Part shown: positions 10,364 through 12,734 of the stretch, in pieces
How the letters are laid out: every line of letters begins with the position of its first letter
Position numbering within the stretch: the stretch's first letter is position 1
Source: Escherichia phage vB_EcoM_SHAK9454
Sequence record: OR594184
Length of the DNA stretch: 39,471 nucleotides
Direction: 5' to 3' (one strand)
Translations under genes and position numbers: made by a program
The notes under the pieces: generated by a model
Seen by the model: only the letters and a program-made list of their open reading frames with translations
Databases searched by the model: none
What the model was told of the DNA's origin: nothing

Positions 10364-10373
10364 CTAAACGTCA

Positions 10374-10411
10374 ACCCAGTGGTCTTCGGACTGCTGGGTT
10401 TCTTTGCTTTG
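10374..10411 (+). terminator. Early transcription terminator (TE-like), intrinsic
   Basis: Hairpin ACCCAGTGG-tcttcgga-CTGCTGGGTT followed by TTTCTTTGCTTTG, directly after the ligase gene as in T7. Confidence 0.6.
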
Positions 10412-10446: not shown

Positions 10447-10469
10447 CCTAAGCTATCACTATAGGACAA
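10447..10469 (+). promoter_or_regulatory. Phage RNAP promoter
   Basis: CCTAAGCTATCACTATAGGACAAC, +1 G at 10464. Confidence 0.75.
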
Positions 10470-10495: not shown

Positions 10496-10750
10496 ATGTT
10501 TAAGAACTTAATGTTCAATCGTTATACCAGTACATTCCACCTGTCTCACAACCCATTAGCTTGCATTAAGCGCAACGAGAAGATGGGATACTTCGGGAAG
10601 GCCGTTAAGCTGTCACCTACAGTCTATGCTCTGATTACTCCGGGAAAAGCTGAAGAGGCTCGAAAGAAGCAGGAAACAAGTGTGCCCGTGGTCTACACTA
10701 AGTGGCCTCGCTTTCGTCTGTTCGTTGAGTTCGTGAAGGAGGTGTTCTGA
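10496..10750 (+). CDS. Hypothetical protein (84 aa), class II region
   Basis: TAAGGAGG then ATG 10496; no recognised motif. Confidence 0.6.
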   Translation: MFKNLMFNRYTSTFHLSHNPLACIKRNEKMGYFGKAVKLSPTVYALITPGKAEEARKKQETSVPVVYTKWPRFRLFVEFVKEVF

Positions 10751-10820
10751 TGGGATGTATAGCTTGCTTAGAGAAGGATGACCGTTATCCACACACGCCT
10801 GTAATAAAGGAGTTAACAAT

Positions 10821-11294
10821 ATGAACGCACTTGAACAAGAGATTATCATTAAGTTGGTAGATAATAACGAAGGTCGCCCAGATGATTTGAATGGCTGCAG
10901 TATTTTCTGCCATACTGTCCCTTGCTTCCTCTGCCCTGTAAATATCAATGAAAAGATAACCTTAGGTGAAATCCGAGCGATGGACATACGTAAGCCTAAA
11001 CTGGAGAAACCAGAGGTAACTCCTACAGATGACCAACCTTCAACTGAGTCAATCGACGCTGTCCGCAAGCCGTCCCACTATCAGGTATTTGACGGAGTGG
11101 AGTCCATTGAGATTATCGCTCGGTCCATGACTGTCAGCGAGTTCCGTGGGTTCTGCATGGGTAACGTCCTGAAGTATCGACTCCGAGCTGGTAAGAAGTC
11201 AGAGCTGGCGACTATGGAGAAGGACCTGAACAAAGCAGCCTTCTATCAGGAGCTGTTCGACCTACATAAAGGTAAGTGCTATGCTTCCGAGTGA
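10821..11294 (+). CDS. T7 gene 1.7-like protein (nucleotide kinase family), apparently lacking the usual N-terminal segment
   Basis: EIIIKLVDNNEGRPDDLNGC...RAGKKSELA resembles recalled T7 gp1.7; AAGGAG RBS; frame is closed 5 codons upstream of the ATG. Confidence 0.6.
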   Translation: MNALEQEIIIKLVDNNEGRPDDLNGCSIFCHTVPCFLCPVNINEKITLGEIRAMDIRKPKLEKPEVTPTDDQPSTESIDAVRKPSHYQVFDGVESIEIIARSMTVSEFRGFCMGNVLKYRLRAGKKSELATMEKDLNKAAFYQELFDLHKGKCYASE

Positions 11295-11372
11295 GTGGTG
11301 CGAGCGTAAATTTGAGGAGACAGGTAACGTCGATTACCTTCAGCTCTACAACTTATGGAAGGAGCGTGGTCT

Positions 11373-11531
11373 ATGACTGACGTAGAGAAGAAATACATCG
11401 TGGAACTTGAGGGACGTACCCAGTCCTTCGAGGTTCCGTTGTACGCAAAGTCTCTTGAAGAGGCTACCCTGAAGTCCCAAGAGTATGAGGACGCTGGGTT
11501 TGTGGTCGGACGGATTCGCCCTGAGACCTAA
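11373..11531 (+). CDS. Host RNA polymerase inhibitor (T7 gene 2-like), 52 aa
   Basis: GGAAGGAG then ATG 11373; [14 protein letters not shown]...[10 protein letters not shown] matches recalled T7 Gp2 SFEVPIYAETLDEA...AGFEVTRVRP; below the track cutoff. Confidence 0.75.
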
Positions 11532-11589: not shown

Positions 11590-12288
11590 ATGGCTAAAGA
11601 GCAACTGAAGACTTTCACCACTCCGGTAGCTGGTATCGTTGAGCCTTACGCATGGCTGAACAAAGCAGACACCAAGTTTAACGAGCGTGGTGAGCATAAG
11701 GTTAACCTGACATTCGACCTGAGCAACCATAAGGTCCGTAAGATGATTGATGTCTTACAGAAGATTCACGACGATGCGTATGCAAAAGCACTCGCAGACC
11801 ACGAGAAGAACCCACCTCAGGTTCAGCGTGGCAAGAAGCCTATTGAACCACGAGAAGGCGACATGCCGTGGATTGAGAATGGTGACGGTACTGTTACCCT
11901 TAAGTTTAAATGCTTTGCGTCTTACCTGAAAGACGGCAAGTCCGAGCCTATCGTATTACGGTTCTACGACACCGATGCTAAACTCATCCGTGACGTCCCG
12001 AATATCTGCGCTGGGTCTAAGCTGAAGGTCAAGTTTAAAGTCCTGCCGTTCAAGTGGAACGCTGCGACTGGTGCAAGCGTTAAGCTTCAGCTTGAGTCCT
12101 GCCTTCTGGTAGAACTGAAGGAGTGGAAAGGCGATGGTGCTGGTGGCGATGGTGGCTGGGGTGATGATGAAGACCTTGGTACTGGCTACAAAGCGTCAAC
12201 CGTTGGTGACTTCGGTGACGATGACTTCGGTGACGATGGTTCCGAAGGTGGTGACGACTCCAACTCTGGTGGCGATTACGACTTCTAA
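11590..12288 (+). CDS. Single-stranded DNA-binding protein (T7 gene 2.5-like)
   Basis: 232 aa, same length as T7 gp2.5; acidic C-terminal tail ending DYDF; GKKP..EGDMP and VKLQLES blocks. Confidence 0.92.
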   Translation: MAKEQLKTFTTPVAGIVEPYAWLNKADTKFNERGEHKVNLTFDLSNHKVRKMIDVLQKIHDDAYAKALADHEKNPPQVQRGKKPIEPREGDMPWIENGDGTVTLKFKCFASYLKDGKSEPIVLRFYDTDAKLIRDVPNICAGSKLKVKFKVLPFKWNAATGASVKLQLESCLLVELKEWKGDGAGGDGGWGDDEDLGTGYKASTVGDFGDDDFGDDGSEGGDDSNSGGDYDF

Positions 12289-12734
12289 TGAAACTTAAAG
12301 AGAAACTGGAGGCTTACTCTGAGGTTTCTCCTAGTGGATGCTGGGAGTGGCAACTCTCCCGGTTTCCTGCTGGATATGGTCGAATATCAATAGGACGTCA
12401 GAAACAGGACTACGCTCACCGAGTTTCATACAGGGAGTACAAAGGTCCAATACCTGATGGATTGGTTGTTAGACATAAATGTGATAATCCCTGCTGCTGT
12501 AACCCTGAGCACCTTGAACTAGGTACGCAGAAGGACAACATGAGGGACTGCATGGAGCGAGGACGAAAGTCTAATCCTCCCGTATTCAAAGGAGAAGCTA
12601 ATCACAAGACTAAGCTGACCAAGGAAAACGTAGAGTTCATCTTAGAGTCTATGCTACCAGCTATAGAACTAGCCAAGATGTTTGGAGTCACACCAGCGGC
12701 TATAAACTGGAGGAGACAACATGGCTGGACGTAG
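12288..12734 (+). CDS. HNH homing endonuclease
   Basis: CWEW...GYGR...HRVSY...HKCDNPCCCNPEHLELGTQKDN motif; codon usage richer in ATA/AGA/AGG than neighbours. Confidence 0.8.
   Translation: MKLKEKLEAYSEVSPSGCWEWQLSRFPAGYGRISIGRQKQDYAHRVSYREYKGPIPDGLVVRHKCDNPCCCNPEHLELGTQKDNMRDCMERGRKSNPPVFKGEANHKTKLTKENVEFILESMLPAIELAKMFGVTPAAINWRRQHGWT

Follow-up and report, generated by a model that had tools for sequence, protein, structure and literature searches.

The question raised by this locus is whether gene 1.7 of Escherichia phage vB_EcoM_SHAK9454 is a broken gene, a gene misread in sequencing, or a natural short form of a gene that is longer in its relatives. The DNA analyzed was a stretch of 39,471 nt from sequence record OR594184, referred to here as the window. 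A preliminary description of the window had reported a 24-codon ORF whose stop codon overlaps the ATG of a 157-aa gene 1.7-like ORF. It had suggested, with some uncertainty, that both pieces belong to one protein in T7 gp1.7 and that the gene may be split or truncated. The analysis indicates that the window likely carries a genuine +2 frameshift in a CA tract, which removes only the long isoform of gp1.7 while a short gp1.7 of 157 aa should still be made.

The window was classed as Kayfunavirus, which are T7-like podoviruses of the K1F group. Its first 25 kb were approximately 94% identical to several Kayfunavirus genomes. In the kilobase around gene 1.7 the identity was 98.6% to LNA5, 98.3% to SHAK7854, 95.4% to EcoIv41_Bia, 93.2% to ST1749, and 92.8% to R1. 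The local gene order is that of T7, with ligase, terminator, promoter, gene 1.6, gene 1.7, a gene 1.8-like ORF, and gene 2 (Table 1). The position of gene 1.7 between gene 1.6 and genes 1.8 and 2 is conserved, with a phrog_1777 protein encoded upstream and phrog_1312 and phrog_1307 proteins downstream. Nine copies of the promoter core CACTATAGG were present in the window, all on the plus strand, compared to 0.34 expected by chance. Directly 3' of gene 2.5 an ORF of 148 aa (12288-12734, plus strand) has a Cys/His-rich sequence of the type seen in HNH homing endonucleases and may encode one. In the SHAK7854 record (L005, OR594182) the misc_feature labels over the present region read "similar to amidase" and "endonuclease", and the DNA beneath them is genes 1.6 and 1.7. 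The deposited annotation of SHAK7854 looks offset or mis-assigned over these two genes.

Table 1. Features in and around gene 1.7 of the window.
Feature	Position	Strand	Remarks
TE-like terminator hairpin	10373-10400		After ligase gene; 12-bp stem followed by T run
Phage RNA polymerase promoter core CACTATAGG	10457..10465	+	Upstream of genes 1.6, 1.7, and 2; 3' of terminator hairpin
Gene 1.6 homolog, 84 aa	10496..10750	+	phrog_1777, E = 1.3e-32; position as T7 gene 1.6
Shine-Dalgarno AAGGAGGT	10736..10743	+	Serves ATG at 10750, the ancestral long-form start
Remnant of long-form N-terminus, 24-codon ORF, MGCIACLEKDDRYPHTPVIKELTI	10750..10824	+	Codons 1-16 ancestral; codons 17-24 (PVIKELTI) out of frame
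CA tract with frameshift	10789..10799	+	CCACACACGCC in window, CCACACACC in intact relatives; extra dinucleotide placed at 10796-10797
Internal Shine-Dalgarno AAAGGAG	10806..10812	+	8 nt 5' of ATG at 10821; encodes N-K-G in long-form genes
Gene 1.7, short form, 157 aa	10821..11294	+	Cys cluster 2 domain aa 1-59, disordered linker aa 60-95, helical DUF3310
DUF3310 (PF11753) domain	11061..11249	+	aa 81-143 of 157; profile positions 1-59 of 60
Small ORF at gene 1.8 position, 31 aa	11281..11376	+	phrog_1312, E = 8.6e-13; overlaps end of gene 1.7
Gene 2 homolog (host RNA polymerase inhibitor)	11355..11531	+	phrog_1307, E = 4.7e-24

The coordinates of the two ORFs and their overlap were as the preliminary description had given them, with the TGA of the 24-codon ORF at 10822-24 and the ATG of the 157-aa ORF at 10821-23 sharing the sequence ATGA. 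The TGA stop of gene 1.6 likewise overlaps the ATG at 10750 (TGATG). The region from 10750 to 11294 is 545 nt long and 545 mod 3 is 2, so the two ORFs lie in different frames. The frame of the 157-codon ORF is -1 relative to that of the 24-codon ORF. The ribosome binding site that had been ascribed to the 157-aa ORF was also found, as the AAAGGAG located 8 nt before its ATG. Both start signals are conserved. An element of the AAGGAGGT type precedes the long-form start in 20 of 20 loci compared, and AA[AG]GGAG lies 7-9 nt before the internal ATG in 20 of 20, in long-form and disrupted loci alike.

The 24-codon ORF is not a chance ORF because its N-terminus matches the N-terminus of gp1.7 across many phages. 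The peptide was searched by tblastn against 50,697 phage records (2.3 Gb) and its first 16 residues were 100% identical to the gp1.7 N-terminus in many of them. The N-terminal segment was found in 218 records, 137 of which were at least 99% identical over the aligned part. Only LNA5 and R1 extended through the frameshifted tail, and the full 24 aa were matched in LNA5 with an E value of 4e-9. Residues 2-16 of the ORF are residues 20-34 of T7 gp1.7. The ancestral codons 1-16 carry the CxxC...H part of Cys cluster 1. No Pfam match was obtained for the 24-aa peptide.

T7 gp1.7 (NP_041967) is a dTMP/dGMP nucleotide kinase with a DUF3310 domain (phrog_2585), and its gene occupies the same position, between gene 1.6 and genes 1.8 and 2. 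It is a single ORF of 196 aa which reads ...TGCIACLEKDDRYPHTCNKGANDM(42)TEREQE..., or over a longer stretch ...QATGCIACLEKDDRYPHTCNKGANDM(42)TEREQEMIIKL.... When it was aligned to the window by tblastn, two matches in different frames were returned. Residues 20-34 matched the 24-aa ORF with 100% identity and residues 33-196 matched the 157-aa ORF with approximately 73% identity. The two ORFs of the window are collinear with residues 20-34 and 42-196 of T7 gp1.7, and the suggestion that both pieces form one protein in T7 was correct. The 19 extra residues at the N-terminus of T7 gp1.7 are absent from the window and from all 180-aa Kayfunavirus forms. The internal Shine-Dalgarno sequence and Met42 of T7 are conserved in the window, but there the cluster 1 segment is out of frame and only the product equivalent to that from Met42 can be made.

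The nearest intact relatives encode a single ORF of 180 aa, which begins MGCIACLEKDDRYPHTCNKGANNMNA... and in ST1749 MGCIACLEKDDRYTHTCNKGANNMNAREQE..., and the 180-codon gene is uninterrupted in SHAK7854, Bia, and ST1749. Between the gene 1.6 stop and the internal ATG there are 69 nt in SHAK7854, Bia, LI10P1, ST1749, and Esher7 compared to 71 nt in the window. At the nucleotide level SHAK7854, Bia, LI10P1, Esher7, and T7, all intact, carry TATCCACACACCTGT where the window carries TATCCACACACGCCTGT. The window has two more nucleotides than its intact relatives and the gene is therefore split by a frameshift after codon 16. In silico removal of the CG at 10796-10797 restored the 180-aa ORF, which bears out the suspicion of a split or truncated gene. 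The repaired ORF matched phrog_2585 ("nucleotide kinase") over positions 1-173 with 272.9 bits. The 157-aa ORF matched positions 24-173 of 175 with 236 bits (E = 6.8e-70), and it is the out-of-frame remnant that encodes the missing positions, 1-23. As a result of the frameshift Cys cluster 1 (CxxC-x10-HxC) is out of frame with the rest of the protein of the window, and its fourth ligand, a cysteine, is lost, the reading ending at the stop at 10822. The long form is ancestral in the sublineage of the window.

The 157-aa ORF matched PF11753 with 76.3 bits against a cut-off of 24. All family-invariant residues are retained in the protein, with the RLRAGKK motif and all four cluster 2 cysteines among them; in the 48-row alignment used the protein of the window is row 1 and hence shares all 47 invariant columns by definition. 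AlphaFold2 (AF2) models were moderately confident only, with a mean pLDDT of 60-65. In the model of a 180-aa long form (P0001), which is 92% identical to the protein of the window, residues 1-23 had a pLDDT below 50 and no predicted contact to the rest of the protein. The confident modules of P0001 were residues 24-80 and 118-175, with a disordered linker between them. The same two modules were predicted in the 157-aa protein with a pLDDT of 70-88, the first helix starting at residue 3. According to these models the short form begins at a domain boundary and nothing modeled depends on the lost segment. A sequence search of the PDB gave no meaningful match, nor did a Foldseek search of the AF2 model against the PDB (best E = 2.5).

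Two forms of T7 gp1.7, of approximately 22.2 and 17.8 kDa, reportedly co-purify and have equal kinase activity. The masses computed for T7 gp1.7 were 22,184 Da for the full-length protein and 17,711 Da for the product from Met42, which fits that account. If the account is correct, the larger isoform is simply missing from the phage of the window. Two reports describe gp1.7 as phosphorylating dTMP and dGMP independently of metal (PMC7693777, PMC11897194). Expression of the 157-aa protein and retention of its dTMP/dGMP kinase activity would be expected from the conservation of the ORF.

A Met equivalent to that at 10821 was present in 48 of 48 aligned homologs, whether internal (M24 in the long form) or N-terminal. 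In K1F, the type phage of the genus, gp1.7 is 155 aa long and has this Met as its first residue, and its start is ATGA-coupled to the ORF before it. Like the protein of the window it comprises Cys cluster 2, the linker, and DUF3310. The ORF preceding it is gene 1.6 itself with no remnant of cluster 1, whereas the window keeps a remnant of 71 nt, and the N-terminal domain of K1F gp1.7 is of a diverged type (MTTYDNMIIKLIDMN...) whereas that of the window is T7-like. The gp1.7 proteins of L014, L015, and L024 likewise start at the equivalent Met, and a length of 152-162 aa was found for approximately 40 of the 120 best homologs. As many homologs start at the position equivalent to 10821, the gp1.7 family has natural long and short forms. 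The preliminary description had noted that a normal start of the family at this position would speak against a split gene. Such a start was the case for many homologs including K1F, but not for the sublineage of the window, which is ancestrally long and has a recognizable 5' remnant.

The family is modular 5' of a constant DUF3310 and many N-terminal architectures were seen when L013, L016, L019, L022, L027, L028, and L038-L043 (NC-A, PHB20, IME390, PVN09, PZJ0206, and AH67C600_Q5) were compared. Cys cluster 1 is fused straight to DUF3310 in NC-A, IME390, and PHB20, giving proteins of 102-104 aa. Other N-termini included an SH3/KOW-like module (IKDGDTVKYVG...), short alternative Cys-rich leaders, and an in-frame deletion. 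The stretch GCIACLEKDDRYPHT, which corresponds to T7 gp1.7 residues 20-34, is 15 residues long and much more conserved than the rest of the protein (approximately 72% identity), with 100% identity in 137 of the 218 records, which range from T7 to Kayfunavirus. This implies that the motif may be under strong constraint wherever it is retained, or may have spread recently. Since the N-terminal segment is unusually conserved and intact in most genomes that have it, it probably serves some purpose where present, and losing it may be costly. The lost CxxC-x10-HxC segment would thus probably have some accessory role.

The region from 10496 to 11294 was mosaic when compared to T7 (L001) and ZH4 (L009). 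The nucleotide identity of gene 1.6 to that of T7 was only approximately 37-57%. Over 10739-11042, the 5' half of gene 1.7, identity to T7 was 70-100% in 30-nt windows, most of them at 90% or above, and over the DUF3310 part it was 60-77%. The reverse pattern of identity was seen against ZH4 for 10893-11012. The comparison suggests that N-terminal modules of gp1.7 may have been exchanged between Teseptimavirus and Kayfunavirus by recombination.

The +2 change was not confined to the window. It was found in vB_EcoP_LNA5 (MZ311861) from wastewater in Brisbane, Australia, in vB_EcoP-R1 (OQ703102) from Chinese sewage, and in three SRA-derived assemblies of a T7-like lineage (L033-35). In all of these the tract is CCACACACACC, an uninterrupted (CA)4, whereas that of the window is CACACACG. 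LNA5 and R1 are altered in the same CA tract as the window and likewise have a 24-codon remnant whose stop lies in the ATGA overlap, and in the R1 record a "nucleotide kinase" is called from the internal ATG. The 24-aa peptide of LNA5 is identical to that of the window, the R1 version has one substitution, and the tail differs in L033 (PVTKELKV). In a further record, Logan assembly L030, the +2 allele has decayed further, the start codon having changed from ATG to ATT and an additional +1 indel being present. Neighbor-joining trees of the short ORF and of gene 1.6 placed the +2 alleles in at least three clades adjoining intact sisters, with the window and LNA5 beside SHAK7854, R1 beside Esher7, and L033 beside T7. 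A single origin of the allele was considered, but is not what these trees suggest by themselves. The recurrence would be explained by a small hotspot at which slippage has happened repeatedly, or by transfer of the allele through recombination. As the gene 1.6/1.7 region is mosaic, such transfer may have taken the place of repeated slippage.

The N-terminal segment was also lost in other ways. A -2 deletion, GAGAAAGATG to GAGAGATG, was found in Milel, Emlis, and Midid. In L031/32 the segment has an additional G (+1) together with Cys-to-Arg and Cys-to-Tyr changes. In IME177 (L046, MZ398247) the long-form ATG is changed to ACG. The body of the IME177 gene has a further frameshift, its short ORF is only 102 aa, and it is annotated as two CDSs; it is either a true pseudogene or the product of sequencing error. 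Every disrupted allele but that of IME177 retains a full-length ORF of 155-158 aa starting at the internal ATG.

An obvious concern is that the two additional bases arose by mistake in sequencing or assembly and that the phage truly has an intact 180-codon gene. Indels in short repeats are a common class of error and the remainder of the 71-nt segment is identical to that of intact SHAK7854. The junction was absent from the metagenome_contigs and viral_contigs collections in exact-pattern scans allowing 0-8 variable bases, and an exact-protein look-up of the 157-aa product returned no record. Against this, the same +2 change at the same tract was obtained by different laboratories in different countries (LNA5, R1, L030, and L033-35), and its occurrence in at least three clades makes a sequencing error unlikely. 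The tract of the window departs from a plain repeat expansion by a substitution, and the further decay of the +2 allele in L030 would be expected of a real inherited lesion. An artefact confined to the window is unlikely whether the recurrence is due to repeated slippage or to recombination. A real lesion could also mean that gene 1.7 in its entirety is inactive and decaying, a pseudogene whose 157-codon ORF has stayed open only for lack of time since the lesion. Gene 1.7 is non-essential, as T7 can do without it in the laboratory (PMC9712115), and it is absent altogether from some relatives (PMC7693777). In Citrobacter phage CR44b, also a Kayfunavirus, it is annotated as a pseudogene without its N-terminal region (PMC4038870), and the second frameshift of IME177 indicates that the whole gene can decay. 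Only the DUF3310 part (T7 residues 120-196) is recognizable in CR44b, whereas the window has no more than its first 23 codons detached. None of the invariant or nearly invariant residues of the family is missing from the 157-aa ORF, its profile scores are high (76 bits to PF11753 and 236 bits to phrog_2585), and its Shine-Dalgarno sequence and ATG are intact. A full-length short ORF was present in 9 of 10 independently sampled disrupted alleles, even where the remnant has decayed further (L030 and L031), and natural short forms are common. A dying gene is distinctly improbable on these grounds, and the split gene 1.7, complete in its 157-aa ORF, does not look dead as judged from its residues.

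Joining of the two ORFs by programmed -1 ribosomal frameshifting, or by polymerase slippage at the CA tract, would allow some long form to be made. Relative to the upstream ORF the downstream frame is -1, and it stays open from 10782 onward; one shift-prone A_AAG tetramer is in frame at 10806-10809. This tetramer is the conserved Shine-Dalgarno sequence, which is found in all alleles, intact or not, and a fusion at it would read ...HTPVIKGVNNM..., still without the cluster 1 cysteine. With only 3-4 repeat units the CA tract is short, and that of the window has an interruption. No canonical slippery heptamer (X_XXY_YYZ) was found in the zero frame of 10750-10824, and no stable stimulatory RNA structure was predicted 5-9 nt downstream (MFE -10.3 kcal/mol, z = +1.14; 174 of 200 shuffled sequences had folds as stable or more so). 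Programmed frameshifting was rejected for want of a heptamer and a downstream structure. There is no evidence for recoding of gene 1.7, which is very improbable. That the 24-residue peptide is itself a selected micro-protein or regulatory leader is scarcely credible. It has a strong Shine-Dalgarno sequence, is translationally coupled on both sides, and is the same in LNA5 with one substitution in R1. Its last eight residues, however, are an out-of-frame reading of conserved DNA, the tail is not kept in L033, the start codon is lost and a second indel gained in L030, and the peptide is without a Pfam match. A functional micro-protein was rejected since the remnant is further decayed in L030 and L031. 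A wider reading, quite unlikely, is that the (CA)3 tract within the Pro-His-Thr-Cys codons acts as a recurrent, partly reversible switch of the long isoform and its Cys/His knuckle, the short kinase staying on and the loss being selected in some hosts. Besides the +2 change at least four other kinds of lesion fall within the same 23-41 codons. Phase-variable simple-sequence loci have a long uninterrupted repeat, typically of six or more units. The CA tract has only three or four and is interrupted in the window, but it occurs in both lengths among close relatives and in at least three clades. T7 gp1.7 activates EfAvs5 (PMC11897194) and a missense change in gene 1.7 was found in escape mutants of retron Ec48 (bioRxiv 10.1101/2020.06.21.156273). 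Host immune sensors responding to gp1.7 are a candidate, although speculative, pressure for the loss.

The preferred explanation is a genuine +2 frameshift with continued production of the short gp1.7. Replication slippage would have converted CCACACACC to CCACACACACC, and a further A-to-G change would have given the CCACACACGCC of the window. Ribosomes coupled from the gene 1.6 stop would start at 10750, make the 24-residue peptide, and terminate at the TGA within ATGA. The 157-aa protein would be produced by direct initiation at AAAGGAG-N8-ATG, around which the RNA is without stable structure, and termination-reinitiation at ATGA may contribute. The product would hold the Cys cluster 2 domain, the linker, and DUF3310, and would equal the natural K1F-type gp1.7. 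What would be lost is the long isoform, that is, the 23-residue N-terminal CxxC-x10-HxC motif. Since the 157-codon gene keeps its ribosome binding site and start and matches a natural short form, the allele is an ordinary and probably harmless variant.

The gene family, its short forms, and truncated alleles are already public, given that R1 is annotated from the internal ATG and CR44b as a pseudogene. Slightly new are the small hotspot at the CA tract and how many times the N-terminal motif has been lost independently. For annotation, 10821 should be taken as the start of the gene, under the name gp1.7 nucleotide kinase (short form), and 10750-10824 flagged as a frameshifted remnant. Neither a pseudogene nor two unrelated hypothetical proteins should be recorded. 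In terms of natural variation, the N-terminal Cys/His segment is an add-on that has been lost repeatedly, and the product from the invariant internal Met is the conserved core of the family. Should selection, exerted for example by host sensors of gp1.7, prove to lie behind the recurrent losses, they would be of moderate interest for the biology of phage defense.
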